Position numbers and translations under genes: made by a program. The notes beneath the pieces are model-generated. The model did no database searches. It saw only the letters and a program-made list of their open reading frames with translations, and was not told the DNA's origin. A stretch of DNA of 64,000 nucleotides from a virus. The DNA is taken from positions 1 through 64,000 of IMG/VR virus record IMGVR_UViG_3300025009_000080, one strand, 5' to 3'. This document shows, piece by piece, positions 857-21,429 of this stretch. Positions within the stretch are counted from its first letter, which is position 1, and every line of letters starts with the position of its first letter.

Positions 857-893
857 ACTTGCGTCTATATAACTTGCGTCTACACAGATGTTA
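857..893 (+). other. attI-like cassette flanking site 1
   Basis: AACTTGCGTCTA(871-882)-CACAGAT-GTTA; ACTTGCGTCTA also at 857-867; same 12-mer, 7-nt spacer and GTTA at 21407-21429 on the minus strand. Confidence 0.6.
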
Positions 894-1432
894 TCGGCAA
901 CCTTAACGAGCCGCACGTTTCTTTAGCACGATAAATGCAGAATTATCTTTTAAACTATGTAATCCATCTTTTGTTTGATAATTGCAAAATTCTAACTGGT
1001 CAACTATTTTCTGTAAAGTATCATACTTTTCTTCTTCGATTTCTTCACGAGTTTTTGGTATTACAACTGGTACGGGTTCAGCAATAAAAAATAATTTACC
1101 TTTTGAACTACCTTCAACTGTCATGGGCTTAAATTTATACTTACTGCCTAATATGTCCCAATACTGGTTTATTTTTTCTTGCAAAGAACTTCCCATCGGA
1201 ACTCCGCCGCTTAAAAACATTACAGGGTCTCCGCCTCCTTTATTAATGGCGATAATATTATCCATTTCTTCTTGTGTCATTTCAAATTCTTGTCTCATTT
1301 TTTTTGTTTTTAAATTGTTAATAATTCGTTTGATATAAAAGGCAGCCGATAACACGTAATATAAAAAATTGGCTATCAGTGTTCGTGGTAGTTTGAAAGG
1401 TCAGTACAAGCCAACTTTTCATATTACCATCG
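891..1432. mobile_element. integron-like gene cassette 1
   Basis: Begins G|TTATCGGCAACC; complementary GGCAGCCGATAAC at 1341-1353; ends in a hairpin and G|TTA; single ORF inside. Confidence 0.6.
903..1298 (-). CDS. hypothetical protein (cassette cargo)
   Basis: Probable start MRQEFEM at 1298 after an A-rich leader; the track's extension to 1355 runs into the att-like site. Confidence 0.75.
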   Translation of the reverse strand: MRQEFEMTQEEMDNIIAINKGGGDPVMFLSGGVPMGSSLQEKINQYWDILGSKYKFKPMTVEGSSKGKLFFIAEPVPVVIPKTREEIEEEKYDTLQKIVDQLEFCNYQTKDGLHSLKDNSAFIVLKKRAAR

Positions 1433-1435
1433 TTA
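1341..1435. other. attC-like imperfect inverted repeat 1
   Basis: TAAC-AC-GTAATAT-AAAAAA-TTGGCT...AGCCAA-CTTTTC-ATATTAC-CATC-GTTA; A/C mismatches become G.T pairs on the other strand. Confidence 0.7.
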
Positions 1436-1657
1436 TGGTGCAACAACTGAATCCGTTTTAATCTCATACAGATACCACGCTGAATCCTGATTCATTTGTA
1501 ACATGCCCAAGTTGTGTACATTGGTTAGGCTGTCATTAATCATGCACGGGCGGCAATTCTCAAATTCAAAAGTTTTCTGGGTTTGCTTTGCCGGGAGCCA
1601 TGAAGTGATTCCGATAGCAATAAAGACAATGCTGAAATAAGTGATTTTGTAGGTCAT
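1433..1657 (-). CDS. small membrane-anchored/exported protein
   Basis: N-terminal hydrophobic stretch; three D(S/T)-hydrophobic motifs; own promoter upstream. Confidence 0.7.
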   Translation of the reverse strand: MTYKITYFSIVFIAIGITSWLPAKQTQKTFEFENCRPCMINDSLTNVHNLGMLQMNQDSAWYLYEIKTDSVVAP

Positions 1658-1702
1658 AATGTGTTTGTTTTAAGGTGCTAAATTGCTTAGCGTTTAACAA
1701 CA

Positions 1703-1733
1703 CAAAGATAGTGTACCACAACACAGATGTCAA
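1703..1733 (-). promoter_or_regulatory. promoter TTGACA-N17-TATCTTTG
   Basis: Bacteroidota -7 TAnnTTTG with TTGACA 17 nt upstream; same spacing at three other sites. Confidence 0.75.
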
Positions 1734-1768
1734 GCAAAATCTTCACTTGTTAATAACTTTGTACGACG

Positions 1769-1915
1769 CTAATCAATATAGGGTGCGTGCGGATTGCGGT
1801 ATTCGTGCATGAACTTACGGTTTTCATTGCGCTGATCCCAAAGGCACAGCAAAAAAAACCATATCCATATAGGCATAGTGAGCAATAATAATAATTGAAT
1901 AAGTTTGGTTCTCAT
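1769..1915 (-). CDS. small membrane protein (48 aa)
   Basis: MRTKLIQLLLLLTMPIWIWFFLLCLWD...; fills the gap in the operon; not in the ORF track. Confidence 0.5.
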   Translation of the reverse strand: MRTKLIQLLLLLTMPIWIWFFLLCLWDQRNENRKFMHEYRNPHAPYID

Positions 1916-1917
1916 GG

Positions 1918-2163
1918 TTACGATTCTCTTGGAAACAGAATTACTTCACCTAATCGGTGCTTACAGTCCTGTTTGATTAATGACAAAATCTCGCTTGGTT
2001 TTCCAAGTGCGATGTATTCCTTCCCTGATGACATCATTAGTTCAGTGGTATCAGGGATTTCACCCTCTGATATGGCCTCAATCCCGGCTAAAGTAAGAAA
2101 AAGGAACGGCTTAAATGCCTCATGCCCCCGAAACTTGCAAAGTATGTCAATTGTGTACACCAT
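1918..2163 (-). CDS. hypothetical protein
   Basis: Tightly packed in the minus-strand operon. Confidence 0.65.
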   Translation of the reverse strand: MVYTIDILCKFRGHEAFKPFLFLTLAGIEAISEGEIPDTTELMMSSGKEYIALGKPSEILSLIKQDCKHRLGEVILFPRES

Positions 2164-2164
2164 A

Positions 2165-2518
2165 TTATATAGGGGTTACGGGTTCGCTGATCTCTTTGGT
2201 TGATGCTTCTTTCTCGATAGCGGCATAATGAACCATGGTATTATGAAACGCTATATCGCACACATACTTTATTACTCCACGGTATTCGGAGTTCAGACTT
2301 GATGTTTTTGCCCAAATTTCGGCAATATTATCAAGAAAATAAGCACTACTGAGTTCCTCCATAGACATTCTGTCATACCAATCACGCCTGTAATGACGAC
2401 CCAGATCAGGATCCGGACGATTCCTGCGTTTACCTTTAAGGTCTTCTAATGCAATGTGTACTTGTTTCCTGAACACGGGATCAGCACAGATTTCTCCAAT
2501 TGTTTCAAATTTTGCCAT
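2165..2518 (-). CDS. hypothetical protein
   Basis: Tightly packed in the minus-strand operon. Confidence 0.7.
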   Translation of the reverse strand: MAKFETIGEICADPVFRKQVHIALEDLKGKRRNRPDPDLGRHYRRDWYDRMSMEELSSAYFLDNIAEIWAKTSSLNSEYRGVIKYVCDIAFHNTMVHYAAIEKEASTKEISEPVTPI

Positions 2519-2524
2519 AACTTA

Positions 2525-2665
2525 CTATTTATTGATTGTAAAATTAACCCACACAAGTACACAAAAAGCTAATGCAGCCCCTAAATGGTAATCATACCAT
2601 AGGCAAAATGCCAAAATCCCGGCAACACCTAAGCGAAAAATTATTAACCACCTGGGCTTTTTCAT
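2525..2665 (-). CDS. small membrane protein (46 aa)
   Basis: MKKPRWLIIFRLGVAGILAFCLWYDYHLGAALAFCVLVWVNFTINK; ATGA overlap with the upstream gene. Confidence 0.5.
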   Translation of the reverse strand: MKKPRWLIIFRLGVAGILAFCLWYDYHLGAALAFCVLVWVNFTINK

Positions 2666-2991
2666 GGCATATTGATTTGTTTATAGTGATGCTCAAAATA
2701 CTGTTTTTTCTCAACACAGGCGTAGCCATTAGAATATGTTAACACATAATCTCCTTTTTCAATCCATTCAAACGGATACGGAACACCAAATAGTAGAGCA
2801 ATATCTTTATTCACATCATTTGGTTTCGGGAGTTTGAATAAGTAGAACACCTTATCGCCTCTCGATTCATACAGCGACTTTGCCAGTACCTTCTTTATAA
2901 ACCCTTCGTCTGCCAGGAGTACGCCATCAGGAGTATAGTCATCCGTAAACTGCTCGGCTTCCACAATTTCTTTTGAATAGATTTTTTTCAT
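2662..2991 (-). CDS. phage hypothetical protein
   Basis: IVEAEQF...KGDYV...YFEHHY pattern typical of a common small phage family. Confidence 0.7.
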   Translation of the reverse strand: MKKIYSKEIVEAEQFTDDYTPDGVLLADEGFIKKVLAKSLYESRGDKVFYLFKLPKPNDVNKDIALLFGVPYPFEWIEKGDYVLTYSNGYACVEKKQYFEHHYKQINMP

Positions 2992-2997
2992 ACCATA

Positions 2998-3321
2998 TTA
3001 TATAAGAGGTTTAAAAACTACCGAAACAACGCCTTCTTTATCCCGCAAAATCCCCACTCCATAAAGGTGTGCAAAACTCATATCCACACACTCATAAGCA
3101 TACCCAACCTTACCCTCACTTTCCGAAAGCCAAAACGCTACCACAGGGTTTACCCCAAGTACTTCAAGCAATCGTAACAGCACGTCAACTCGCAAGTGCC
3201 TGACTCCATGTTCAACCATACTCAGGTACGCTGCCGTACAGCCAAGTGTTTCTGAGAGTTCGTGCTGCCGAATCTTTTTACCCCTGCGGAGTCCTTTTAT
3301 TACCAAGCCCATGTCTTTCAT
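2998..3321 (-). CDS. XRE-family HTH transcriptional regulator
   Basis: LRRGKKIRQHELSETLGCTAAYLSMVEHG. Confidence 0.85.
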   Translation of the reverse strand: MKDMGLVIKGLRRGKKIRQHELSETLGCTAAYLSMVEHGVRHLRVDVLLRLLEVLGVNPVVAFWLSESEGKVGYAYECVDMSFAHLYGVGILRDKEGVVSVVFKPLI

Positions 3322-3998
3322 TATTCTGGAAAATTTATTTTTTGCTGACTGATATGGTTGTTATACCGCTTCACGGCTGCATCGTAATAATCCTTATCCA
3401 GTTCGCAGATGACCAGACTCAGATCCATTTTCTCGACCGTGTTGGCTTCATGTACCGCAATTGCAAGGCTCATACTGCCGCCGTGGGTGTCGAGAATGGA
3501 TTGTCCATGCTTAACGTAGTTTTTGAGAATCCAACGGTATAAGGCGACGGGTTTTTGTGTAGGATGCACCCTAACTTCCTTATCCTTCATATTTTCTTGT
3601 AACATCCCATTCCACATAAAACGGAATATATCTACCGATATACCAAATGACTTCATTGCAATTTCGCACTGCGAAAAACTGCTTTTGTCATTTTTCTTAT
3701 CCCAAACGATACGCCCAACATTTCGGGAATATTTTGCATAGTAATTAATTCCCCAAATTATTTGATCAGTACTTGCCCTATACAATTCGTCAAAATACCT
3801 TCTTCCCGGAATCATCCAGTGTTTTGAGTGAAATCTATTCCTTTTTATACCCGTAGTGCTAATTTTAGCACCCGGATAGATTTCTTTCCCATAATCAGAA
3901 AAATAAGGAGAATCGACTATGGCAATATCGAACTGCTTATCCTTACAGGTTGCCAGATATTCCATGCAGTCGATGTTTAATAATCTTATCTCACTCAT
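3321..3998 (-). CDS. DNA amino-methyltransferase (N6-A/N4-C, beta-type order)
   Basis: DCMEYL, motif IV variant IVDSPY, HPTQKPVALY, motif I variant ILDTHGGSMS, ELDKDYY. Confidence 0.9.
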   Translation of the reverse strand: MSEIRLLNIDCMEYLATCKDKQFDIAIVDSPYFSDYGKEIYPGAKISTTGIKRNRFHSKHWMIPGRRYFDELYRASTDQIIWGINYYAKYSRNVGRIVWDKKNDKSSFSQCEIAMKSFGISVDIFRFMWNGMLQENMKDKEVRVHPTQKPVALYRWILKNYVKHGQSILDTHGGSMSLAIAVHEANTVEKMDLSLVICELDKDYYDAAVKRYNNHISQQKINFPE

Positions 3999-4002
3999 AA
4001 CC

Positions 4003-4323
4003 CTACCTCTTACTTATCGAAATACAAACACCATCCTTACCTCGTAAAATTTCAATGCCATAGTAATACCACATCCCGACATCTATCATGCGAACAAAAC
4101 CATTATCTCCACAAGATTGTGTCTCCGAAACCCAACTCCATACGCCCATGGTTATCCCACTCAAAGCACAGACTTGTTCAATCAACCCAATATCAGGACT
4201 CCTGTCTCCACTCTCGATCATACTTACATACTGACGACTCACCTTCAGTCTCTTCCCAAGCTCCGCCTGAGTCATTCCCATCTTCTTTCTGCATAATGCA
4301 ACTACTCCCCCGAAAAATTTCAT
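4003..4323 (-). CDS. XRE-family HTH transcriptional regulator
   Basis: RKKMGMTQAELGKRLKVSRQYVSMIESG; start moved to ATG 4323, downstream of the promoter. Confidence 0.85.
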   Translation of the reverse strand: MKFFGGVVALCRKKMGMTQAELGKRLKVSRQYVSMIESGDRSPDIGLIEQVCALSGITMGVWSWVSETQSCGDNGFVRMIDVGMWYYYGIEILRGKDGVCISISKR

Positions 4324-4346
4324 AGTTTGTTGGTTAAATGTCAGCG

Positions 4347-4377
4347 CAAAGTTAACATTACACACCCCTCTTGTCAA
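4347..4377 (-). promoter_or_regulatory. promoter TTGACA-N17-TAACTTTG
   Basis: Same architecture as 1703-1733. Confidence 0.75.
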
Positions 4378-4379
4378 GA

Positions 4380-5398
4380 AATTACACCCAAACTTATCAA
4401 CAGCCACCCAAAATCACTCTCCAACCCACTTTCTGATACCAAAAATCCCGCAATTCAACCCTCACTATATAATATGGTGTACCCCAATCAAATCCCTTAT
4501 TTCGTCAACTGCTTATTATTCAACTATATAACCTTTTTAGTAAACAAACCAGCTTGTCTCCACACGGTGGCAATACTTGACCAACCTGTCTACTGTTATA
4601 CAACACTCACTTATTCAAGGATTCATATTTGTAGGGGTTTTTATTCTATTTGTAGGGGTACTATGTACTAAAAGACCCCCCAGCCGTCCTTAAATGGGGA
4701 AACGGGAGCGCAAAACATGGGCAAATTTTCCTATTAGCGGACGTATTATTATCCATTATCCATTATATACATTCGCTTTGTGTTTTCAATTGCTTGATTT
4801 ATAGTTAGTTATATTCTACTTAACATAATACTAATTATAGGACGGAACAGAATAGTGCAAATTTACTGAATAATAGCCGGTTAAATTGAATCTAACTGTC
4901 TGATCTTGTTTTATTTACGTGTCAATATTCTCTCCCTCGCTTTTGTTAAGTACATTAAGTACACCGGTTTAGTGTACATTCGGGAATGGTTTTGTTGTAC
5001 TGTGTTACTTATAAGGTGGTGTCTTGTGTTTTTTGGTGTTTACTATTTTTTTGTTTGCGGGGATTCAGCAAAAGTACGGGGGTACATTATTATTTACCTT
5101 GCTTGTTTGTTGCTTGATCTCTTTACTTCCTTTAATAGTGGTGTAACCTGACTTTGTATCTTCATGGTCAATGTATTCTTGTTCCTGGCTCACTGGTTTG
5201 TTATTGTGGTTGGTTTGTTGTTATTGTTTGCCAGATTTCAGCCATTTATTATTTAGATTCTGTCTAAATTGCATTTATTTTCAATTTATTTGCATTTTGC
5301 CAATTCTCATATAGTCCTTATTACTGTAAGAATAGCCTGTATTTGGTATCTATTAATGTTTTATATTGTGTTTTATTCGTGTCGGGAACGTGTAAAAC
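4380..5398. other. about 1-kb non-coding region between divergent transcription units
   Basis: No convincing ORF; C/A-rich left half, T/G-rich right half. Confidence 0.6.
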
Positions 5399-5425
5399 TG
5401 TTGTAATATTGCAGCGTTATACAAC
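5399..5425 (+). promoter_or_regulatory. conserved promoter/operator motif, copy 1
   Basis: TGTTGTAATATTGCAGCGTTATACAAC; 25/27 identical to 21927-21953; contains GTTGTA-N14-TACAAC dyad. Confidence 0.7.
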
Positions 5426-5449
5426 GTTAACAATTTAACACCTCAAATC

Positions 5450-5785
5450 ATGAGTACAATTAATAGAAATTATCTTACTGAATACCTTGAATGCTTAATT
5501 GATTCAGAGGGCATAAGCGTAAGACATATAAACGGATCAGTTAGCGAACCGGATGCAATGTTGACAGAATGCAATTCCGGAGGCTTATTAATTAAATTGA
5601 TTTCGGATGAAGCCGTTATTTGTTGGCGTGATTGGGCAGGTGATGAAATAATCATCCCTAAAATTTGTGAAATTACACACGAATACACACCGGACGACGA
5701 AGAGGAGGGAAGTTATTTAACTTTTTGTTTCAGCTTTGCCGGAAACCAATATCAGTTAAATAACTTTATGCGTATAAACCATTAA
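5450..5785 (+). CDS. hypothetical early protein
   Basis: First ORF after the promoter motif. Confidence 0.7.
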   Translation: MSTINRNYLTEYLECLIDSEGISVRHINGSVSEPDAMLTECNSGGLLIKLISDEAVICWRDWAGDEIIIPKICEITHEYTPDDEEEGSYLTFCFSFAGNQYQLNNFMRINH

Positions 5786-5890
5786 AACTAATGGAAACAA
5801 CCCTATATATTTTAAGTGGTGTTATACTCCTTTTTGGTATGTTACCACGCAGACAGCAAAATAAATTCTAACCTTTTAATACTTACAACC

Positions 5891-6199
5891 ATGAACCAAA
5901 CACCAAAAGGATTAATAGCAAGCATTTACAGAGATGAATACAAATGCAGGCTGAACAAATTAGACAACTTCCAAAGTGTAGTTGTAATTGATCCGGAATT
6001 AGACCCTATTTTTGAGCCTAAAAGCGACATGCCAGCCGTGAGACTGGTCAGGCATACATTTTTCGGCAAACCCTACATTCACGCAGAACCAATGGAACCC
6101 GGCATGTATATGTTTGGGGGTTCGTTCATTTATAGCAGTGATAGCAGATTAAACGCCATCAATAAATACCCGATACCATTACACGATAGACAAGAATAA
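5891..6199 (+). CDS. hypothetical early protein
   Basis: Probable start MNQTPKG at 5891; MFGGSFIYSSDSR...PIPLHDR pattern. Confidence 0.75.
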   Translation: MNQTPKGLIASIYRDEYKCRLNKLDNFQSVVVIDPELDPIFEPKSDMPAVRLVRHTFFGKPYIHAEPMEPGMYMFGGSFIYSSDSRLNAINKYPIPLHDRQE

Positions 6200-6223
6200 T
6201 TTTAACCTTTTAATACTTTTACA

Positions 6224-6637
6224 ATGGACTACCAGCAAATTAAAAAACAGACACAGGATAATTTAACAGTCCTGTTTGAGAAATACGGTGTATTTTTTGC
6301 CTTCTCAAGTGAACAGTTTGAAGAGGGAATGAAGAAATACCCTGTTAATGAAGGTGAAAAATACAGCAGTTTAGGCATGGGCGGATACCTGCCAGCAAAA
6401 AATAAGGCTGGTTTTCGTGCTGAATATGATAAGTTATATGAAGACGAGCGCAAAGCACTGAAGGCGGCAAAGCACGAAGCAGAAAATGCCATTCGTTACG
6501 AGCTTGCGAACTATGAATGTTATTACTCTAATGACATTTCTCCCGTAGTTGATATATTTAAAGGTATTTACACCCGTGCGCAAATCGTAAAAGTTTACCA
6601 CAAGAACAGGGCAGAATATCTCGAAATTCACGGATAA
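6224..6637 (+). CDS. conserved phage hypothetical protein
   Basis: FFAFSSEQFEEG...YELANYEC pattern. Confidence 0.8.
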   Translation: MDYQQIKKQTQDNLTVLFEKYGVFFAFSSEQFEEGMKKYPVNEGEKYSSLGMGGYLPAKNKAGFRAEYDKLYEDERKALKAAKHEAENAIRYELANYECYYSNDISPVVDIFKGIYTRAQIVKVYHKNRAEYLEIHG

Positions 6638-6649
6638 AAACACCGGCAG

Positions 6650-6693
6650 CCCGTTGAACGCTGAAATTATCCGGAGCGATACCGGCAACGGGA
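6650..6693 (+). ncRNA. mini tRNA-like fold (acceptor + T-like arm)
   Basis: CCCGTTG...CCGG-AGCGATA-CCGG-CAACGGG-A. Confidence 0.45.
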
Positions 6694-6720
6694 CTAAATT
6701 AAACCTTAAAACTAAACACC

Positions 6721-7035
6721 ATGAAAAAAAGTAAAATTATCTGCATCCACATTCATTCCTTAACATGGTTTGACAAAGTAAACGGAAACAGCTATTTTAG
6801 CTCCGTAGTATCAGTTTACCGGAACGGCAAAAACAGACCCGTTGAGTTTATTAAATTGCCGTTTCAGTATGGACACGGGAGCCAACCAGAACACGAAGCC
6901 AAAACCGAATTGATTAATTTAAAATACATTCAGGACACCAATACACTTTGGAGATATTGCGATGAAAAAGGTATTATTTTAATATCCACAAAGACGGACG
7001 CAACGAAGGCGCAAGTTAAGGAATACGGAAAGTAA
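6721..7035 (+). CDS. hypothetical early protein
   Basis: WFDKVNGNSYFS...PFQYGHG pattern. Confidence 0.75.
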   Translation: MKKSKIICIHIHSLTWFDKVNGNSYFSSVVSVYRNGKNRPVEFIKLPFQYGHGSQPEHEAKTELINLKYIQDTNTLWRYCDEKGIILISTKTDATKAQVKEYGK

Positions 7036-7080
7036 CCCGAAAACACCCCAAAACCACCAACCCATATAACACACAAACCC

Positions 7081-7230
7081 ATGAAACAGCTAACAGAAGC
7101 CGAAGTAAACAGATTACAGGACTACATTAATAGTCTACAATTCGAGTGTGACAAGGCAAAAAAGACCGGATATGTAGCTGAAAGTTACATAAAAGAAAAA
7201 ACAAGAGCCATAAACAATTTAATAAAATAA
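7081..7230 (+). CDS. small hypothetical protein (49 aa)
   Basis: MKQLTEAEVNRLQDY...; A/C-rich leader; not in the track. Confidence 0.55.
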   Translation: MKQLTEAEVNRLQDYINSLQFECDKAKKTGYVAESYIKEKTRAINNLIK

Positions 7231-7233
7231 GAC

Positions 7234-7500
7234 ATGGAGACCAAGAAGGACAAAATTAAAAAGTTAGCTGTTGAGATGCTAAACGACAACCACAGCGCAA
7301 TGATTCAAAAAATTGACAGGGCATTAAATTGTGGAGTCATTGATCCGGACACATGGGACGACTGCCATAATTTTATGATCCTGCCAAAATGTATTTTAAT
7401 AGCAGTACTGGAAGACGCAGCAACCCAATACAGCGCAAGCGGAACCATATTTGAAAAGCAGATCAAAAAGGACGTTAAAAACATTCGATTATTCATATAA
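7234..7500 (+). CDS. hypothetical early protein
   Basis: In operon. Confidence 0.7.
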   Translation: METKKDKIKKLAVEMLNDNHSAMIQKIDRALNCGVIDPDTWDDCHNFMILPKCILIAVLEDAATQYSASGTIFEKQIKKDVKNIRLFI

Positions 7501-7523
7501 AATAACACCCTGCAAAAATACAA

Positions 7524-7569
7524 CCCCTGATCCTAAGAAGACAATCCGACAGCGAGAGCGGACAGGGGA
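7524..7569 (+). ncRNA. structured intergenic motif, copy A
   Basis: CCCCTG-ATCCTAAGAAGACAA-TCCG-ACAGCGAGAG-CGGA-CAGGGG. Confidence 0.5.
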
Positions 7570-7615
7570 CAAACACTAACTAAAACCGGGGACGGGGCAA
7601 CCGAACACAAAAAAC

Positions 7616-7795
7616 ATGACAAATTTAGAAGTAAAGATTTCAGAAGACAAAAAGACGGCTACAATTGTAATCGACTTGACAAAAAGAGCCGGACGCAGCG
7701 CAAGCGGCAAAACAATGGTAATTGCAACCACTAACGGCAACGCTCAGATTGAACCAGGGATTTTTTTAGGTGTAAATTGTTACACAAAGGATTAA
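7616..7795 (+). CDS. small conserved hypothetical protein (59 aa)
   Basis: MTNLEVKISEDKKTATIVIDLTKRAGRSASGKTMVIATTNGN...LGVNCY; not in the track. Confidence 0.75.
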   Translation: MTNLEVKISEDKKTATIVIDLTKRAGRSASGKTMVIATTNGNAQIEPGIFLGVNCYTKD

Positions 7796-7835
7796 CCGGA
7801 TTAACACCCACAAGACACGGCTAAAACCCTGTTTT

Positions 7836-7882
7836 CTCCCTGCATTCTAAGCGAACAACCGACTCACGACCGGAGCAGGGAG
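7836..7882 (+). ncRNA. structured intergenic motif, copy B
   Basis: CTCCCTGC-ATTCTAAGCGAACAA-CCG-ACTCACGAC-CGG-A-GCAGGGAG. Confidence 0.5.
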
Positions 7883-7909
7883 CAGATATTAACCTTAACA
7901 CCTAAAAAC

Positions 7910-8302
7910 ATGAAAGTAACCTTTTACACCGACCCAGAAGGCAGTATTTTTGCCTACTTCCCAAATGAAATTTGCGATTCACAAAACAACCGGCAAAGCT
8001 ACGCACATATAGGGCAGCATTCAGCTTGCAGCCCTGAATACGTCAAAGAGTGCAAGCCAGCAAAGCACAAAGATTATAAAGATCTATTAAGCGAACTTGA
8101 AAACATAGGATATTCAAATCTTCAAATTACCAACCCCAAGGAAAAAATCTACAGCCCTCTTAATATGTGCAAAAAAGCATACAGAGAGGCGCGGACACAG
8201 AAAGGCAGACAGGCAGCAATGAACAGGGCAATGTTAAATTTGCCACGTTTAGAGCAGGTCAAATTTCTAAACTGGCAAATAAAATACATGAAGGGAGAAT
8301 AA
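7910..8302 (+). CDS. hypothetical early protein
   Basis: FAYFP...SYAHIGQHSACS pattern. Confidence 0.75.
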   Translation: MKVTFYTDPEGSIFAYFPNEICDSQNNRQSYAHIGQHSACSPEYVKECKPAKHKDYKDLLSELENIGYSNLQITNPKEKIYSPLNMCKKAYREARTQKGRQAAMNRAMLNLPRLEQVKFLNWQIKYMKGE

Positions 8303-8398
8303 AATGGGAACACCAGATATTTTAGCCTACTCAATAATATTAATCTGTATAATAGGGGCAGCGATATTTTGCCCTTATTATCCTAAAAAATCAAAGCC

Positions 8399-8635
8399 AT
8401 GAAACGATTAACAGTTACCCAGAAAGTAGAAGCGTTGAATAATGCTTTACAGCATTATAGTTTCCCTGAAAAGTACTTCATTCAACAAGCAGACGGAAGA
8501 ATAGGACATAAGTTTGCAATAGCATCAAAACCAGAGGAAAGGTCATTGCATATACACACATCTTATATGACCTATGAAGAAATGAATAGTTTCTTTATAG
8601 GATATTCACAGGCAACAAGGAACCCTCTGAAATAA
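8399..8635 (+). CDS. hypothetical early protein
   Basis: In operon. Confidence 0.65.
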   Translation: MKRLTVTQKVEALNNALQHYSFPEKYFIQQADGRIGHKFAIASKPEERSLHIHTSYMTYEEMNSFFIGYSQATRNPLK

Positions 8636-8640
8636 CAGCC

Positions 8641-8856: not shown

Positions 8857-8861
8857 TTAAA

Positions 8862-9789: not shown

Positions 9790-9902
9790 GAAATCAAATG
9801 CACAGTAAGACAGCAGACATAATCGAGATCATTGCAATGATCCTGATAGTAGCCACCATAGTAATTTCAATATTTAAATAACATTAAAAACCTATAAATA
9901 TC

Positions 9903-10124: not shown

Positions 10125-10136
10125 TTGCATACCGAC

Positions 10137-13178: not shown

Positions 13179-13184
13179 TACACT

Positions 13185-13987: not shown

Positions 13988-13991
13988 TTTT

Positions 13992-15002
13992 ATGAACCAA
14001 CTAACACCCGAACAAGTTAAGGCACTGTACTTTGATGCAGATGCAATTCAGCTACCTCCCTATCAACTGTATCAGTTGAATCACATGGGTAAGCGAATGT
14101 ATTACTCACATGAAATAACAGATAGTGGGTCAGTAATAAAGTTCTATGCCGGAGTAACCACTCTGCTTCATGCCGTAATGAAAGAAGCCGACCAGTTGGC
14201 TATTTGGAGAGAGAATATGGGCAGGGCAGCAGCAGAAGCCTATATGAATAATAAGGCACTGTATGGGAGTATGATGCACACTGTATTGACAAGATTTCTG
14301 ATTGACAAGGCATTTGACCTTGACCAGTTACCAATGCTTGTTGTGGAGTACTGCAATAAAAACGAAATCCCTATTGAAAAAGGATGGGCGTACGACATTC
14401 AGCACGACCTTACAGCATTCAGTCGGTTTGTGAAAGAGTACGAAATTAAGCCTATCCTGATTGAAGCTCCAATGAAGTCAGATGCTTTTGGTATTGCCGG
14501 GACTTGCGACCTGCTTGCCGAAATTACCATTGAAGAGAAAGGGTATTGGGGAGAGGAGTACAAAACAGGCGACAAAAAAGGCGAACCAAAGGAAACAAAG
14601 AAGCCGATCCGGGTACTGGCACTCATTGATTACAAATCAAATCGCTCAGGGAGCTTCTATGAAAGCCATGAAATTCAGCTTGAGATGTATGAACATCTGG
14701 TAAAAGAAACGTTCCCGCAGTACAAAGACACACCCATCAGGTTGTATAACTGGTCTCCGAAAGATTGGGAAACAAACCCTGATTACAATTTCAGGGAGCA
14801 GACCGGAAAGCATTTGCCGGAAATCCTGCCTGCATACATCACTATATTCCGGGATAAACAGAAATCTGATCCGGCATTGCGTAATATCCTGTCATTCTCA
14901 GGTATCCTTGACCTTGAAAAGGAATACTGCTGGGAAGAAGTAATCACTATAAAACAACTCAAAGATGTCATCGGGAAGAATCATTCGTCCGGAAAGCAGT
15001 AA
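13992..15002 (+). CDS. PD-(D/E)XK exonuclease
   Basis: GVTTLL, GSMMH, IAGTCDLL, LIDYKS, QLEMY. Confidence 0.85.
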   Translation: MNQLTPEQVKALYFDADAIQLPPYQLYQLNHMGKRMYYSHEITDSGSVIKFYAGVTTLLHAVMKEADQLAIWRENMGRAAAEAYMNNKALYGSMMHTVLTRFLIDKAFDLDQLPMLVVEYCNKNEIPIEKGWAYDIQHDLTAFSRFVKEYEIKPILIEAPMKSDAFGIAGTCDLLAEITIEEKGYWGEEYKTGDKKGEPKETKKPIRVLALIDYKSNRSGSFYESHEIQLEMYEHLVKETFPQYKDTPIRLYNWSPKDWETNPDYNFREQTGKHLPEILPAYITIFRDKQKSDPALRNILSFSGILDLEKEYCWEEVITIKQLKDVIGKNHSSGKQ

Positions 15003-15744
15003 GCCTGCTGCCGGATTGGGACGCATAGGAAAAATAAAGATAGGGCAGAAAGTACCCGGACAAACCGGGGAACGCCCTGTCAGCCTTGACTATTTTAGGG
15101 CAACAGGAGACTACGCTCAGAAGTTCAAAGAGGTGTATGGTGATAAGCCTACGAACATCAAAATAGTATTCATGTCAGACGAACCCACGCTATCCTGTTT
15201 GGAAGAATGGGACGGCAGGGACTCTCAAGGCAGACGTGCAGGGTATGGAGACGGCAGAACCACCCACCTTTGGAACGGCAAAGAGTATGTTATTGTCGAT
15301 AAGGACAAGGCGGAAGCCTATTCAAAAGAGAAGGGGATTAAATGGAATATCGTTCTTACCCTTAACTTTATCATTCCTGCAATTTCTGGTGTACTTGGAC
15401 TATGGACATTCAGCACAAAGGGAGATAAAAGCAGTATCCCTCAGATCCGGAATACCTTTGATACGATCCTTGAAAGGCTTGGAACGGTTGTTAATGTACC
15501 GTTTGACCTTTGTGTAAGGAAGGTGAAATCACAGAATCCTGGCAGTACTTTATTGTTCCCTGTTGTAACACTGGTTCCTAATATTTCACAGGAAAGTATA
15601 GAGGTAGTAAAGAACTACCTGTCAGCAGGGAACAATATCCTACAATTGGGGATGCTTACTGATGAAAAAGTGAATACCATAAAGGCACTGCCTCCAAAGC
15701 CAGATGAATTAACTGATTATGAAGAAGTCAAGGAGGAAAAGTGA
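14965..15744 (+). CDS. Gp3-like (recombination directionality factor-like) protein, likely exonuclease partner
   Basis: LGRIGKIKIGQK...RPVSLDYFR; directly follows the exonuclease. Confidence 0.65.
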   Translation: MSSGRIIRPESSKPAAGLGRIGKIKIGQKVPGQTGERPVSLDYFRATGDYAQKFKEVYGDKPTNIKIVFMSDEPTLSCLEEWDGRDSQGRRAGYGDGRTTHLWNGKEYVIVDKDKAEAYSKEKGIKWNIVLTLNFIIPAISGVLGLWTFSTKGDKSSIPQIRNTFDTILERLGTVVNVPFDLCVRKVKSQNPGSTLLFPVVTLVPNISQESIEVVKNYLSAGNNILQLGMLTDEKVNTIKALPPKPDELTDYEEVKEEK

Positions 15745-16052
15745 AACATTTAATAGACTACGCACTCCTTCAGGAATGGGGATTTATATGGTGTACGATA
15801 CAGAATATTGATAATGAAGAAGTTTGCACCAGCTATTTTTTAAAAGAAATACAAGGCAGTAGTATTCATAATTACAATTCAATAATGCTAAGTGTAGTCC
15901 CGAATGATTATTTTCAACATGAGTGGATACTATCAATTGCGGGAGATACAACCCAATACGGAGGATTGTTATTTCGTGGTTGTATTAGAAACGCTGCTTC
16001 TCTGGATATTATTTTAGGATCATGCCTAATATTTAAACCACTAAAACACTAA
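15741..16052 (+). CDS. hypothetical protein
   Basis: GTGA overlap. Confidence 0.6.
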   Translation: MKHLIDYALLQEWGFIWCTIQNIDNEEVCTSYFLKEIQGSSIHNYNSIMLSVVPNDYFQHEWILSIAGDTTQYGGLLFRGCIRNAASLDIILGSCLIFKPLKH

Positions 16053-16318
16053 TGACAAGGCGCAGAGAACATACTTACGAACCACCGACAGACCTTGTCG
16101 GTCAGTTACAGGAAATGAACTTTCTGATACAGGATTGTGCTGAATGGGCTGCTGTACTTGAAAACGAATACGTAAACGAGTACCGCAGATCATTCAAAAT
16201 GAAAATGGCTGAACTTGAAAGTAAAGCATTCGCCCTCAAGAGGCAGCTTGATAAGATAACACCGGATGAATTTAAAATAAGGAGTAATTACGACATTAAA
16301 AAATCCAACCAACCATGA
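16052..16318 (+). CDS. hypothetical protein
   Basis: In operon. Confidence 0.6.
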   Translation: MTRRREHTYEPPTDLVGQLQEMNFLIQDCAEWAAVLENEYVNEYRRSFKMKMAELESKAFALKRQLDKITPDEFKIRSNYDIKKSNQP

Positions 16319-16773
16319 AAACAAAGAGTAGCTTTTTTACAGCTTTTGACAGACGAGTATTAGGGTTTGCTTTCGGGCTAATAATTGGTGTTCCAATGTT
16401 GATATTCGTGCTTATCCCAAATTCAGTGAGAAAACACGAAAAAGAACACGCCATCCCTGCATTCGACACCGCACTCGATAGTAAAGTGTTCAATACTATC
16501 ACGAAAGAGGATACTGTATTCCACGAAGTACTGTATTCGGGTACAGATAAAGGATTTTACCACAAAATACGCTACAAACCATTTGAGCTTTTTGTATCAC
16601 ATATCCCATGCGTACCTTATAAAACAACAGAAAATATCAGGATAATAATGACTACATACGAGGGAGAAGGTAAAATTATTGAAGCAGACAGACATGGAGT
16701 CAGTGATACAACCATGAAAATACTAAAGAATATTGTTTTAAAGAAAGAACGAGAACTTAACCCTAATAACTAA
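16315..16773 (+). CDS. membrane-anchored protein
   Basis: N-terminal TM VLGFAFGLIIGVPMLIFVLI. Confidence 0.7.
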   Translation: MKTKSSFFTAFDRRVLGFAFGLIIGVPMLIFVLIPNSVRKHEKEHAIPAFDTALDSKVFNTITKEDTVFHEVLYSGTDKGFYHKIRYKPFELFVSHIPCVPYKTTENIRIIMTTYEGEGKIIEADRHGVSDTTMKILKNIVLKKERELNPNN

Positions 16774-16780
16774 CCAAAAA

Positions 16781-18142
16781 ATGAAATTAACAAATCTTAA
16801 ATTAAAAAACTTTGTGTTTCAGGAAGTCGAAGTATCATTCGACCCCAATGTAACCTACATGATCGGAAAGAACGGATCGGGGAAATCAACAGTCGGACTT
16901 ACTGCTTTATGGGCATTGTTTCAGGGCATTGCTGAAAAAAGCAAGAAAGCTCTTATCGGGGAACGTTTCCGGTTTATCGGAGATTACGGTAGCACCGCTA
17001 CTATTGAACTTACTATGTACGACGAAAAACTGGATTGTGAAATCAAAGTGTTCCGAAAAATAACCAAGGACACCACGATTCTCACCTTTCAGGCTCCCGA
17101 AGGAATGGAACTTGGTCAGAGTTGGTTGGATGAACTGTTCAACCTGTTTTTGATTAACCCAAAGGCATTTACCCGTATGTCAGCAAAAGAACAGGCACTT
17201 GCACTCGGTATTGATACCAGTGAATACGATACTGAGCTTAAATCCCTGAGAAGCGACCTGAGTACTAAAAGGAATACTTTAAAAACCATTACCGAAAGTA
17301 TCGCTATGACCTGCCCGAATGGTGTACCGGAAAACCTGCCAGTTGTTATTGACATTGAGTCTATCCGTAAAAAGAAAGCCGACGTTGAAGAGCAGAATCG
17401 TAAGGCATACGAAGCGCACCGCAAAGCAGAGGACGAAATCCGGGCAAACACCTTGCAACACAATTCTATTCAGGAAACCAATCGGGCGGCAAGAATTGCA
17501 ATAGAAATCACCATTGCAAAACTAAAAACCGAATTAGCAGAAGCGGAGGATAAACTAAAAACTATCCCCGAACCCCTCACGCTTATTGATGTCCCTGAAT
17601 ACACCGAAATTCAGCCGGCTGACACCAGTGTTTACGACACAGAACTTGACACCGCTATCGCTAACAACGCAGAGGTGCAAAAGTACGCATCGGTATCAAA
17701 CCTTTTGAGTCAAAAAGCCGAAGCTGAAAAGCAAATTGCTGATTTACTTACTAAGGGTAAAGATAAAGCCGCTAAACGCACTGAGTATATTCAGAAGCAC
17801 AAACTACCACTCCCTGAATTATCTATCAATGAGGACGGAGAATTACTATTCAGAGACCGCCCTATCTCTCCAATGCACTTCTCTTCAGGAGAAATCGTAA
17901 AGTTAATCCCGGTCATTCAGGCTGCTTTGAATCCTGACTTAAAGTTTGTATTTTTACAGGACTTTAACGATTTGGATGACGAAAACCGTGAGGTTATTAT
18001 TAACTACCTTACAAAACAAGGCTTCCAGGTATTGATTGAAATGGTTGGCACGGAAAAAGTAACGGGAAAACACACAATTTTGCTTAAAGGTGGCAAAGTT
18101 GTTGAGGATTACTCAGAAGAAAACTCAGAATCAATCGTATAG
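16781..18142 (+). CDS. SMC/Rad50-like ABC ATPase
   Basis: Walker A GKNGSGKS, coiled coil, signature-like FSSGE, degenerate Walker B VFLQD. Confidence 0.85.
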   Translation: MKLTNLKLKNFVFQEVEVSFDPNVTYMIGKNGSGKSTVGLTALWALFQGIAEKSKKALIGERFRFIGDYGSTATIELTMYDEKLDCEIKVFRKITKDTTILTFQAPEGMELGQSWLDELFNLFLINPKAFTRMSAKEQALALGIDTSEYDTELKSLRSDLSTKRNTLKTITESIAMTCPNGVPENLPVVIDIESIRKKKADVEEQNRKAYEAHRKAEDEIRANTLQHNSIQETNRAARIAIEITIAKLKTELAEAEDKLKTIPEPLTLIDVPEYTEIQPADTSVYDTELDTAIANNAEVQKYASVSNLLSQKAEAEKQIADLLTKGKDKAAKRTEYIQKHKLPLPELSINEDGELLFRDRPISPMHFSSGEIVKLIPVIQAALNPDLKFVFLQDFNDLDDENREVIINYLTKQGFQVLIEMVGTEKVTGKHTILLKGGKVVEDYSEENSESIV

Positions 18143-18143
18143 T

Positions 18144-18521
18144 ATGACAACGCTAAGGATTAAAAGGACAAAACGTGGCTACACTACCCCGGTGGTAAAC
18201 GTAACAAGCGGGAACCATAAGGGAAAACCGTGTAAGTACATCTACTTTTACAAAGTTGCTGTTGAGTTGGCACTTATTGAACCCGGTTATCAGGCTGCAT
18301 TCAGTGTTGAAGCCGGTCAGTTAAGTGTAACACTCGCAGCCCCTGATACAGTACTTGAAAACAGTATCACGTTTCAGGTGAACTCAAAGTGGGGTAACAA
18401 CGTCCTAATCCTTAAAAGTATTCAACTCGCAGGGCAGATCAATGATGGTCTGTACCTGCTTGGAGAAGGTAAAATGCAGCAAGAAAGTATTATTCACCCA
18501 TTAACACCTATAACACAATGA
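18144..18521 (+). CDS. hypothetical protein
   Basis: Probable start MTTLRI at 18144. Confidence 0.6.
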   Translation: MTTLRIKRTKRGYTTPVVNVTSGNHKGKPCKYIYFYKVAVELALIEPGYQAAFSVEAGQLSVTLAAPDTVLENSITFQVNSKWGNNVLILKSIQLAGQINDGLYLLGEGKMQQESIIHPLTPITQ

Positions 18522-18739
18522 ATGAATTAAGAGCAGCAGCAGCAGCACAACCAGAGCACCTATCAGTAGCAATGCAATTTGCAAATGAAATGATTGACAG
18601 GTTTGACCCAGAAGTACAAAATGAGGTACTGGTTAAGATTAAAGAATTGTTTTTCCGGCAACGTGAAAAACAGATCACAGAATTAACTGAACGCATTGAT
18701 CGCTTAAAATCTTGTCTTGATAATTTAAGCAATATCTAA
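18518..18739 (+). CDS. hypothetical protein
   Basis: ATGA overlap. Confidence 0.6.
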   Translation: MNELRAAAAAQPEHLSVAMQFANEMIDRFDPEVQNEVLVKIKELFFRQREKQITELTERIDRLKSCLDNLSNI

Positions 18740-18761
18740 ACCCACTAACACCTATAAAACA

Positions 18762-19025
18762 ATGAAAATAGAAAAAGAAATAATCGACCAAATGGAATCG
18801 TGTGACGCTTATTTTATGATTGGAGTGAGAGATAAAATCCACTTTACTTCTATTGGCAGCACACACACAGACGACACGAAGACAATGCATCACTTAGTAC
18901 AAGGAATGCTTGGAAGTGTAGATGACATTATTAAGAGCAAGAAACAGGGTAACGGAATGGTATTAATGGTATTTGCATATAAGGCAGCTAAGACTATATT
19001 AAAAGATTTCCTCACTAACACTTAA
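18762..19025 (+). CDS. hypothetical protein
   Basis: In operon. Confidence 0.6.
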   Translation: MKIEKEIIDQMESCDAYFMIGVRDKIHFTSIGSTHTDDTKTMHHLVQGMLGSVDDIIKSKKQGNGMVLMVFAYKAAKTILKDFLTNT

Positions 19026-19036
19026 AATAAAACGCA

Positions 19037-19417
19037 ATGAAACAAACCTATGAAATGATCGGGAATGTGAAAATGATTTCAGATCCCAAAACCTTTGGCG
19101 AAAAAACAGAACTCGTTGAAGTAATCCTTGAAACAGGAGACGCAAAGTGGAAGGAATATCCCAAGTTCCAGTTCCGAAATATGTTTATGAAAAAGGTTGA
19201 AGGGACATCGGTTGGAGACCGTGTTGTAATCAGCTTTGGAATCTCAGGGCGTATGTCAGAAGCCGGTGACAACTCTTACATCAACCTGAATGCCTTTGGA
19301 ATGACAAAAATTGAAGAGGCAGAACCAAAAGGCAAGGAAATGAGTCCGCCACCACCAGATGATGAGGGTTTTACCCAAAATCCGCCACCACCAGATGAAG
19401 AGGGATTGCCGTTCTGA
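19037..19417 (+). CDS. DUF3127-like single-stranded DNA-binding protein
   Basis: EYPKFQF...VGDRVVISFGISGR...YINLNAF; acidic tail ending LPF. Confidence 0.8.
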   Translation: MKQTYEMIGNVKMISDPKTFGEKTELVEVILETGDAKWKEYPKFQFRNMFMKKVEGTSVGDRVVISFGISGRMSEAGDNSYINLNAFGMTKIEEAEPKGKEMSPPPPDDEGFTQNPPPPDEEGLPF

Positions 19418-19418
19418 T

Positions 19419-19829
19419 ATGATGCGCCCCGACACATTCCCGTACAAAGTCCCTACTGACCTGATCTGTATGCAGACAGGTAAAGAGCGAATACCAATTT
19501 TCACTATTTGCAGCAGGGCATTTGGTACTACGACTGATAAGGCTATGTCAAAATCAAGAAGGACACCTGATATGCTTGCCCGGCACAGCGCAAGGTACTT
19601 TTACCACTTGCTTATTAAGTGCTATATGGAGATGGAGCGCAAGGGAATCGGAGACCATGCTACAATAATGCACAGCACATCTGTAATTTACGACTTACTG
19701 AACACAAAAAATGTTCACAAGGAAGTAATCAGGAGGCTTGAAATGGAATTTTTAGCAGAAGTACGCAGATTTGACCACCGGAGAAAAATCATAACCCACA
19801 GAATTAAGAAATGTCAATCCGCAAAATAG
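19419..19829 (+). CDS. DnaA domain IV-like HTH protein
   Basis: SKSR...ARH...DHATIMHS resembles the DnaA C-terminal RDHTTVxHA motif. Confidence 0.55.
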   Translation: MMRPDTFPYKVPTDLICMQTGKERIPIFTICSRAFGTTTDKAMSKSRRTPDMLARHSARYFYHLLIKCYMEMERKGIGDHATIMHSTSVIYDLLNTKNVHKEVIRRLEMEFLAEVRRFDHRRKIITHRIKKCQSAK

Positions 19830-20341
19830 ATAAAATTCCAACTGATTTTCAGTTTCAGGAATTTGCCGATTTTCTCTCAACAGGAAAGTCCAAACCTGCA
19901 AACAAAAACAAGCCCGTGGCTATATACTTGTTAAGGCATAATAATTATGCTGCATATCGGGTAGATGAAATGGCAGCAGACCTGAAAACGATTCTCAGTT
20001 ACAGGGTTTTATTTACAAAACTATTGGATTCATACACAAAATACGCACGGATAGGAGCCAAGATCGAGTACGTTAACGATATGTCAGCAGATGGACTGAA
20101 ACGGGTTATCCAAGACACCGTTGTTGACGTACTCCTTGACTTCTTCTCAGATAAAGCATTCGCAAAGATTATTGCGGAGTATTTTGACAAATCAATGTAT
20201 GCAAGCGTATCAAAAGCACTACTTGACCTCATGCCAAGTAACCGACAGAAATTCCAAGCTATGCGCAAACAAGCATATATAAACCGATCCAAACGCAAAA
20301 AAGATGGCGATACTAAAACTAAGCAGGGAGCAACTAAGTAA
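19811..20341 (+). CDS. hypothetical protein
   Basis: In operon. Confidence 0.65.
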   Translation: MSIRKIDKIPTDFQFQEFADFLSTGKSKPANKNKPVAIYLLRHNNYAAYRVDEMAADLKTILSYRVLFTKLLDSYTKYARIGAKIEYVNDMSADGLKRVIQDTVVDVLLDFFSDKAFAKIIAEYFDKSMYASVSKALLDLMPSNRQKFQAMRKQAYINRSKRKKDGDTKTKQGATK

Positions 20342-20759
20342 ACTTGGCGTTGATGCGCCAAAACCGGATAAAAAACAACCTCATGTAAGGGTAAGGGACC
20401 AGGCATGGCGTGAAATCGGTGGTGTAAAGAAGTTTTATCGTAGCAAATGGGAGGCTAATTTCGCCCGTTACCTTCAGTTCTTACAGGAACACGGGAATAT
20501 TGAAAAGTGGGAACACGAACCCTCTACGTTCTACTTTGAGAATATCAAAAGAGGCACTACGAACTATAAACCCGATTTCCTGATAACCCGAAAGGGAGTA
20601 GTGGAGGTAATTGAAGTTAAAGGCTATATGGATGCAAAATCCGCTACTAAAATCAAACGATTTAAGAAATACTACCCTGAGTATCCATTTACCCTTATTG
20701 ATGCTGCATGGTTTGGGAAAAACGCTAACCTGAAACACATTATTAAAGGGTGGGAATAA
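20304..20759 (+). CDS. PD-(D/E)XK endonuclease (DUF1064-like)
   Basis: RSKWEANFA...YKPDF...IEVKG. Confidence 0.85.
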   Translation: MAILKLSREQLSKLGVDAPKPDKKQPHVRVRDQAWREIGGVKKFYRSKWEANFARYLQFLQEHGNIEKWEHEPSTFYFENIKRGTTNYKPDFLITRKGVVEVIEVKGYMDAKSATKIKRFKKYYPEYPFTLIDAAWFGKNANLKHIIKGWE

Positions 20760-20830
20760 CGTTGGTGCTATGAGCAGGTTTGTGTTGCGCCTGCGGCAAA
20801 CTTGCTTATAGCACGTGTTACTGGCTGGCT
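20757..20830. other. attC-like imperfect inverted repeat 2
   Basis: TAAC-GTTG-GTGCTAT-GAGCAG-GTTTG...CAAAC-TTGCTT-ATAGCAC-GT-GTTA; same geometry as 1341-1435. Confidence 0.7.
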
Positions 20831-21409
20831 CGGTTTATCAGTAGGAACTTTAAAAATAACAAAATGAATAAGTACAAAGAAATTGAATTTGGGTTCGGAA
20901 ATATCGAATCAGCAGTAAAAGAACTGAAAAGCCATAACGAATTAGTGTGTGGCTCATTTAATGGTCAAATGTTGTATTCTGACATTGACGATGTAGATTC
21001 AGCTTATGTAAAGATTACAGGCAAAACAAAAGAAGAATGTGACGAAGCCGAAAGAATTAGACACGAAGAATACGAGGAACAACAAAGAAAGCACAAAGAA
21101 GCTATTCCCAAACTTACAAAAGAATGGATTGAAAAAGGCAATACCATTTTAGACGAAAAGTATTGTGAATTATGGGCTAAATGTGTTCCTATTAGACTTG
21201 ATGATTTGTATCAAGGAATGGAATTAGGTAACTGCCTTGAAATAGTTGAACAGTTGAATAACGGCAAAACGGTTGAAGAAGTAAAACCGCTTATTGAAAA
21301 TCAAGGTCATTCAGGAATGTCTTTTGGCTTGGTTTGTTCAATGATAAAATCTTTCTGTGATAGAGGTGAGGAATTTGTCAATTATGCACGGTCGTAGCCT
21401 TGCAGGTAA
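20760..21409. mobile_element. integron-like gene cassette 2
   Basis: Hairpin, GTTACTGGCTGGCT, single ORF, partly complementary AGCCTTGCAGGTAAC, then the shared flanking motif. Confidence 0.6.
20864..21397 (+). CDS. conserved phage hypothetical protein (cassette cargo)
   Basis: Probable start MNKYKE at 20864; DLYQGMEL...QGHSGMSFGLV. Confidence 0.8.
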   Translation: MNKYKEIEFGFGNIESAVKELKSHNELVCGSFNGQMLYSDIDDVDSAYVKITGKTKEECDEAERIRHEEYEEQQRKHKEAIPKLTKEWIEKGNTILDEKYCELWAKCVPIRLDDLYQGMELGNCLEIVEQLNNGKTVEEVKPLIENQGHSGMSFGLVCSMIKSFCDRGEEFVNYARS

Positions 21410-21429
21410 CGTGTCGATAGACGCAAGTT
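21407..21429 (-). other. attI-like cassette flanking site 2
   Basis: Minus strand AACTTGCGTCTA-TCGACAC-GTTA. Confidence 0.6.

Follow-up and report, generated by a model that had tools for sequence, protein, structure and literature searches.

Two phage genes framed by attC-like hairpins behind stop codons: a probable recombinase-less outpost of an integron-like cassette system

The window analyzed here is the first 64 kb (64,000 nucleotides) of IMG/VR virus record IMGVR_UViG_3300025009_000080, a genome of 72,705 bases that CheckV rates as complete. Within it, two genes roughly 19 kb apart, termed cargo A and cargo B, are each set between the same kind of flanking sequences. An earlier note on the window had described two unrelated cargo genes in one frame with a shared flanking site, and a site-by-site reading confirms that observation. 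We consider both genes likely to be cassettes of an integron-like site-specific recombination system common to Bacteroidota chromosomes and phages. Pfam, PHROGs and the ESM Atlas gave nothing usable on the function of cargo A or cargo B; cargo B clusters with viral hypothetical proteins.

Read along the cargo gene, sites A and B have a common layout (Table 1). The TAA stop codon of the preceding phage gene is followed by C and an unpaired G(A/T)TG, then by a stem of 18 or 19 bp, the letters GT, and the box R', which is GTTA plus five letters; about 40 nucleotides (nt) of leader precede the gene. At the far end, the complement of the five R' letters plus TAAC (R'') is followed by seven unrelated letters and the 12-mer TAGACGCAAGTT. 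The note's claim that the 12-mer and its spacing are alike at both sites holds: the 12-mer is exact and its 7-nt spacing identical, and the letters of the spacer differ. Site A alone carries a second copy, matching at 11 of 12 positions, three letters beyond the exact one. The final TTA of each frame was said to be the stop codon of the upstream phage gene; this is the case, and both insertions lie directly behind a phage-gene stop codon.

The two hairpins differ but covary, as had been proposed. Between the stems we counted by eye eight pair changes, all of them compensatory. Both stems have G.T wobbles at positions 8 and 13 on the gene strand, which become A/C mismatches on the opposite strand (also by eye). 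Folding is better on the gene strand, with z-scores of -2.6 and -3.1 compared with -1.2 and -1.6 on the other strand. The related claim, that each cassette start is complementary to its own end, stands in full for cassette A (a 9/9 inverted repeat); the window copy of cassette B reaches 7/9 only, and other copies of cassette B, which carry the R' box GTTACCTGC, reach 9/9. In total, 162 inverted pairs of GTTA plus five letters were found, against 76-96 in shuffles. The 12-mer by itself is weak, since allowing up to two mismatches gives 7 matches where 4.8 are expected, which is not beyond chance. The composite motifs TAAC-N7-12-mer and ACGTGTTAYYGGCTG occur only at sites A and B in the 72,705-base genome. 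A first scan for hairpins plus inverted repeats was too permissive to use. We also considered the 12-mer by eye as a Bacteroidota-type promoter, a reading that was unsupported.

Table 1. Positions of the elements that make up the two framed genes (window numbering; ORF, open reading frame; aa, amino acids)
Feature	Position	Strand or polarity	Remarks
attC-like site A	1345..1435	site polarity + (gene on -)	read on minus strand from TAA|C to R' box
Stop codon TAA of ORF 1433-1657, site A	1435-1433	-	C at 1432, then GATG
Site A stem, 19 bp, 34-nt loop	1427-1409 with 1374-1356	gene strand -	GT after stem
R' box A, GTTATCGGC	1353-1345	gene strand -	after GT
Cassette A module, R' to R''	890..1353	-	holds ORF 903-1298, 131 aa, no known family
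R'' box A, GCCGATAAC	898-890	gene strand -	then 7 nt, 889-883
Recipient-side junction A	856..889	+	11/12 copy of 12-mer 856-867, 3 nt, exact 12-mer 871-882, 7-nt spacer 883-889, G|TTA (890)
attC-like site B	20757..20825	site polarity - (gene on +)	read on gene strand from TAA|C to R' box
Stop codon TAA of ORF 20304-20759, site B	20757-20759	+	then C, GTTG
Site B imperfect stem, 18 bp, 14-nt loop	20765-20782 with 20797-20814	gene strand +	GT after stem
R' box B, GTTACTGGC	20817-20825	+	after GT
Cassette B module, R' to R''	20816..21411	+	holds ORF 20864-21397, 177 aa, no known family
R'' box B, GCAGGTAAC	21402-21410	+	then 7 nt
Recipient-side junction B	21411..21429	site polarity -	7-nt spacer 21411-21417, 12-mer TAGACGCAAGTT 21418-21429; in site polarity AACTTGCGTCTA-N7-G|TTA

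Cassette transfer, arrays and linked recombinases

Cassette B moves between unrelated phages as a unit with defined borders. In whole-contig blastn, positions 20816-21411/12 are the sole similarity of this phage (G000) to each of five other records, G001-G005. The copies in G001 and G003 are 94% identical to it, and the borders, 20816 and 21411/12, fall at the end boxes. Nine pairs among G001-G005 were compared (all but G003-G005), and again only cassette B was in common. Homologues of cargo B occur in 20 IMG/VR contigs, about 11 of which, by our own reading, bracket the gene with GTTA-N5...N5-TAAC boxes. The box pairs vary among contigs with complementarity kept: GTTACCTGC/GCAGGTAAC, GTTAGCAAC/GTTGCTAAC, GTTACAAATA/TATTTGTAAC, GTTAGCGTT/AACGCTAAC and GTTATGGTGC/GCACCATAAC. 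Sequencing runs were examined as Logan contigs, not reads, and the four runs that are full holders may be the source sample. Contigs from four public runs of four studies cover 20831-21411 only, each diverging after 21410-21412; the rest of 20300-21900 is uncovered in those runs, which we read only as cassette B occurring without this phage. In two run contigs the 20-letter ends are retained and enclose another interior, of about 400 letters. For cassette A, locus L063 shows homology at 90% nucleotide identity over exactly window 890-1350 and none outside, and locus L064 has a cargo 65% identical to cargo A between covarying boxes, GTTATAGGC/GCCTATAAC. The linkage of hairpin to gene is looser: three of the six close cassette B copies share an upstream hairpin, across different upstream contexts.

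Solitary sites, which the earlier note had reported, are true of this phage only. Other phages hold from two to about 18 cassettes, in head-to-tail arrays of ~18 sites in G001, ~10 in G002, 5 in G004, 4 in G005 and 2 in G003. Along an array, the self-complementary ends of consecutive cassettes covary. Wherever the ends are visible (G002, G003, G004, G005 and both window sites), a hairpin lies before the first cassette and none after the last.

In G004 and G005, a gene for a tyrosine recombinase, of 277 and 266 aa respectively, lies just past the last cassette. A search with these two enzymes led to nine loci. At seven of them the recombinase gene starts 52-58 nt after the terminal ...TAAC, on the cassette-gene strand (L084, L085, L086, L087, L089, L090 and L091; two are G004 and G005 themselves, and L086 is near-identical to L087). 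An eighth locus is truncated by the contig end, and the ninth is an unrelated integrase of 25% identity. The array-linked phage enzymes, 266-277 aa long, are Xer-like: of the NCBIfam models, XerA (NF040815) matches them best, though below its cut-off, and the integron integrase model TIGR02249 gives 127-170 bits against a cut-off of 265, with the match in two stretches. Among solved structures, too, XerA chains come closest, and the match to IntI4 (2a3v) falls into two pieces. Records G000, G001, G002 and G003 contain no tyrosine recombinase. The statement that no integrase is present thus extends from the window to the whole 72.7-kb genome of this phage, but not to other phages, some of which have an Xer-type recombinase beside their arrays.

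Site family, gene orientation and the recipient-side motif

The recombinase family also reaches into bacteria. At E <=1e-20 it comprises 5,322 proteins among 8,000 candidates scored, Flavobacterium chromosomal proteins included. Among the best 80 Bacteroidota genome loci, six have, according to our detector, an array with the same boxes after a related recombinase gene, and these bacterial array-linked enzymes pass NF040815 and fail TIGR02249. In one of the six, from Flavobacterium cheonanense JCM 17069, the order is recombinase, an attI-like GTATA...G|TTA, gene, R''-TAAC, hairpin, and AAAC-G|TTA. The attI-like region of this species (L120, 8830-8905) has two direct repeats of ~17 nt (TTGTCATACATAT.TAC), the second ending 3 nt before G|TTA, which resemble the tandem 12-mers of window site A.

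A covariance model was built from 17 Bacteroidota chromosomal array sites only, with no phage sites. Both window sites have the TAAC and GTTA that are invariant in the 17-site alignment; a few sites have CAAC/GTTG in their place. Across 24 phage sources the model had 57 matches; in 299 kb of control sequence, from 42 phage loci, it had none. With filters off, its first-ranking match in the window is site B (20748-20829, minus strand, 33.9 bits, E 8.5e-6) and its second is site A (1341-1444, plus strand, 32.6 bits, E 1.7e-5), each on the strand opposite its own cargo gene. A third match, at 56426-56522 (17.8 bits, E 0.042), lies inside ORF 56126-56812 with no partner boxes, and was set aside as chance.

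Gene orientation differs between phages and bacteria. Phages have the longest ORF opposite the site strand in 38/38 intervals between consecutive model matches, whereas bacteria have the ORF on the site strand in 13/13 intervals with an ORF of at least 100 aa. The reversed gene-to-attC orientation reported for the window is therefore general in these phages. Judged by the model matches, the window sites are homologous to the bacterial array sites, and the phage genes are inverted relative to them. In five Bacteroidota genomes (G006-G010, 150 candidates scored per genome) there were at least 18-29 site-model matches each, clustered as well as dispersed over several contigs; therefore, solitary sites are common in hosts too.

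On the recipient side of the junction, the 12-mer behaves differently from the cassettes. It was not found beside cargo A or cargo B in other contigs, and it ends cassette rows in unrelated phages. The pattern TAAC-N7-12-mer has five matches in IMG/VR, of which L177 and L178 are terminal cassette ends; these two contigs have no sequence in common, nor does either share any with the window. The first, L177, is a complete genome of 32 kb that has terminal repeats and lacks a tyrosine recombinase. The strict pattern TAACRTNTNNNTAGACGCAAGTT has no matches in IMG/VR. Metagenome contigs yielded 78 matches to TAAC-N7-12-mer. Eleven of these loci carry site-model matches, with all 18 of 18 model matches on the pattern strand and the site downstream of the motif at 10 of 11 loci. 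To the question whether the 12-mer travels with the cargo, the answer is no: by its distribution across these sequences, the motif belongs to the recipient genome.

Cassettes turn over at this junction in other phages. The near-identical backbones L178, L236/L186 and L191 have different content between the same left flank and TAAC-N7-12-mer, namely two cassettes, one cassette plus an ORF, or one ORF. Loci L183 and L198, with both flanks 96-98% identical, differ in a first cassette of ~95 nt as against ~1.65 kb; both of its borders are at G|TT, and the next cassette is common to both. At L223 a related recombinase (39% identical to P0054) lies 452 nt from the motif and points away from it. L217 has 69 nt at 83% identity to the flank of window site B and a tandem 12-mer pair like that of site A. 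At L201 (~5070-5127) and L223 (~3038-3095), a mini-ORF of 12 codons (ATG ... ACT TGC GTC TAT stop), the last of them supplied by the 12-mer, lies just upstream of G|TTA; the window sites have no such mini-ORF.

Proposed mechanism and rival explanations

Taken together, these results suggest how the two genes may have come to lie where they do. A cassette is a gene between self-complementary boxes, GTTA plus 5-6 nt and the complement plus TAAC. It is joined to its neighbour through an attC-like hairpin site, in which the R boxes form one stem, a short spacer stays unpaired, and a second, imperfect stem has mismatches or wobbles at fixed positions. A circular cassette would be recombined by a short Xer-type tyrosine recombinase, presumably with one strand folded, so that the hairpin site is joined to the recipient site AACTTGCGTCTA-N7-G|TTA just after a phage gene stop codon; the exact crossover point is predicted to lie within that core. 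The inserted gene would thereby become part of a phage operon. Because this phage encodes no recombinase, the enzyme would have come in trans (from a host chromosomal platform or a co-infecting phage), or the insertions would be older than the loss of the recombinase. The earlier proposal, an integron-like cassette system inserting genes behind stop codons, is thus supported in its AAC/GTT boxes, mobility, position and inversion; its solitary sites and missing integrase describe this phage only. On this probable reading, the phage is an outpost, itself without a recombinase, of an integron-like system, to which a conserved docking motif is the added detail.

Several observations weigh against it. 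This phage, complete by CheckV, has neither a tyrosine recombinase nor a Y1 transposase, and for that reason action in trans is only what we infer. In the search for close relatives, window 1-22000 matched no GenBank phage by megablast, and among the contigs examined neither an empty junction in a relative nor a cassette circle was seen. The resolvase-like gene next door led to 42 IMG/VR loci, which reach no more than 58% identity and contain none of the five other flanking ORFs searched; because they are not syntenic with the window, they are unusable as empty-site comparisons. Of the 78 metagenome matches to the 12-mer pattern, 67 are without a cassette site and may be chance. The linked recombinases do not have IntI-defining features, and their activity on these sites is predicted. 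Finally, window cassette B, although 94% identical to the copies in G001 and G003, shares with them only the stretch from R' to R''. Because its hairpin is unrelated to theirs, a single crossover point does not explain the mismatch; it is possible that hairpin exchange on either side, or gene conversion, could account for this loose linkage.

The hairpins could instead act on transcripts between genes, for instance as terminators or as RNase III-type processing sites, with the cassettes shuffling by homologous recombination between copies of these regulatory repeats in the manner proposed for the PeSLs (promoter-stem-loop elements). Their place directly behind stop codons would fit, as would the better folding of both window hairpins on the transcribed strand via G.U-type wobbles, and the accessible part of Arbiol et al. 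2010 (PMC2839356) has PeSL-flanked genes of T4-type phages shuffling and forming mini-circles. We nevertheless regard this as unlikely. The site family is oriented oppositely to the genes in bacteria and in phages, and because its orientation to transcription flips, the conserved feature is unlikely to be a sense-RNA structure. Moreover, the two ends of each gene form covarying inverted repeats, transferred segments stop at 4-bp cores beyond which the phages have no homology, arrays end beside a tyrosine recombinase, and no conserved promoter motif was seen by eye in the sites. Similarly improbable is that the window cassettes are relics, in which an array fragment with its hairpin and 12-mer end entered by illegitimate or homologous recombination and is now inactive. 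In its favour, this phage lacks a recombinase, drift has left the R' box of cassette B matching its partner at only 7/9, and both frames share flanking motifs missing from cassette B copies elsewhere, so that the frames may predate the cargo. Yet there are two separate loci, each exactly at a stop codon and with the exact 12-mer at identical spacing although the 7-nt spacers differ, and the same junction has live cassette turnover in unrelated phages. The 94% identity of cargo B to other phages' copies also argues for recent exchange.

Less credible than either is that the units are non-autonomous transposons with terminal inverted repeats, a TAAC target and a hairpin like that of IS200/IS605 elements or of miniature inverted-repeat transposable elements, mobilized by a transposase in trans. 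Each unit does have inverted terminal repeats of 9-10 bp and is flanked by TAAC on both sides, and IS608 inserts beside TTAC and uses subterminal hairpins. However, the Y1 transposase family PF01797 is present in 0/6 records (G000-G005), there is a single hairpin per junction rather than one at both unit ends, head-to-tail arrays end at a tyrosine recombinase gene, and the sites are homologous to bacterial arrays beside the same recombinase family.

The cassette reading therefore remains the one we prefer, and it raises a wider possibility that we put forward tentatively, at somewhat less than even chances. Bacteroidota and their phages may share a parallel integron in which a plain Xer-type recombinase without the IntI insert acts on folded hairpins. 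Virulent phages without a recombinase would keep short, portable docking sites AACTTGCGTCTA-N7-G|TTA just behind stop codons, enzymes of the host or of other phages would load and swap accessory genes in phage operons, in the phage reading direction, and exchange on either side would reassort modules and hairpins. If so, integron-type gene capture is tied neither to IntI nor to bacteria, and phages of a major bacterial phylum swap small accessory genes as precise cassettes across unrelated genomes. The exchanged genes would plausibly serve host takeover or counter-defence, with recombinase-less phages keeping the docking sites. Recognizable bracketing sites offer a concrete route to phage accessory genes, and the recipient site is testable. 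The system would also be a natural experiment with an Xer-type enzyme on folded single-stranded substrates.

Two neighbouring features of the window may be recorded here. Directly downstream of the cassette A 12-mers lies a tRNA-like gene (741-834, minus strand), which scored 34.6 bits against the Rfam tRNA model in a targeted search (gathering score 29). Its anticodon region spans 23 nt, compared with 11 in the model, and it has a long variable arm; it was detected neither by ARAGORN nor when the whole window was run against Rfam at the gathering threshold. At the left contig end (window 1-380), the genome's first 20 bases are found again at position 126 and its first 50 at position 252, suggestive of tandem repeats with a period of 126 bases.

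Comparison with known systems

The likeness to classical integrons, including sedentary chromosomal ones, is extensive. AAC inverse cores are paired with G|TT cores, the first letters of a cassette are complementary to its own inverse core, and imperfect hairpin sites lie between small promoter-poor genes. A head-to-tail array runs up to a recipient site that adjoins the 5' end of the gene for a tyrosine recombinase, and near-identical backbones differ in the first cassette with borders at G|TT. The window itself has no array abutting attI and an integrase; such an arrangement, with an Xer-type recombinase, is seen at the 7 phage loci, at L223 and at 6 bacterial loci.

The differences are equally plain. 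No IntI with its extra domain is present in the window genome, and the linked enzymes are Xer/XerA-like proteins of 266-277 aa whose IntI-model match is split in two and below cut-offs. The R boxes are 9-10 bp long, not 7. In phages the cassette gene is opposite the site strand (38/38), unlike the attC site 3' of a gene in the same orientation, whereas bacterial arrays of the same site family follow the integron orientation. Hairpin-gene linkage is loose here. We identified no extrahelical bases; the sites show mismatches or wobbles at fixed positions, and a spacer of 2-4 nt is left unpaired. We take it that, under IntegronFinder class definitions, each window site would count as a single site and not as a CALIN (cluster of attC sites lacking integrases). 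Single attC sites and solitary cassettes outside att sites are known for classical integrons, according to the accessible part of Loot et al. (10.1101/2022.09.11.507474), and Bacteroidetes have hardly any complete integrons in what is available of the IntegronFinder 2.0 paper (PMC9024848).

Two other kinds of element can also be set beside these cassettes. PeSL cassettes of T4-type phages, in the accessible part of Arbiol et al. 2010 (PMC2839356), are likewise small genes of unknown function bracketed by stem-loops and shuffled. PeSLs are described there as conserved promoter-terminator repeats exchanged by homologous recombination, whereas here the sites vary and the end boxes covary. A repeated conserved early promoter plus terminator was not seen: there are two sites in 72.7 kb, their stems differ at 8 pairs, and no common promoter was apparent by eye. 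Unlike PeSLs, the cassettes have borders at 4-bp cores and a tyrosine recombinase linked to their arrays. As for IS200/IS605 elements, neither the Y1 transposase (PF01797, 0/6) nor subterminal hairpins at two ends were found, with one hairpin per junction.

A close precedent is the work of Qi et al. 2023 (PMC9892861), the accessible part of which describes attC clusters in 21 phages, including Polaribacter phage P12002L. The CALIN of P12002L carries two methyltransferase genes, and one of its sites recombined with attI1 under IntI1 (same source, within the same limits). These CALINs resemble the window sites in being attC-type sites in virulent phages without an integrase. In P12002L our site model matches at 4 places with E <0.01 and at 2 weaker ones, all opposite to, and between, methyltransferase genes; the matches are probably the sites of Qi et al. 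In this cultured, virulent phage (L173), several DNA methyltransferase and Mom-like genes at 29999-32290 and 38026-39254 are each bracketed by model matches, and these genes look like cassettes of the same site family. Our literature search, which covered sources other than subscription journals and supplements, turned up no publication that deals with an Xer-type recombinase next to phage cassette arrays, with the inversion of cassette genes or with this 12-mer. Compared with the accessible part of Qi et al. (PMC9892861), what is added here is the Xer-type recombinase beside phage arrays, the long arrays, the systematic inversion of the genes and the 12-mer recipient site.

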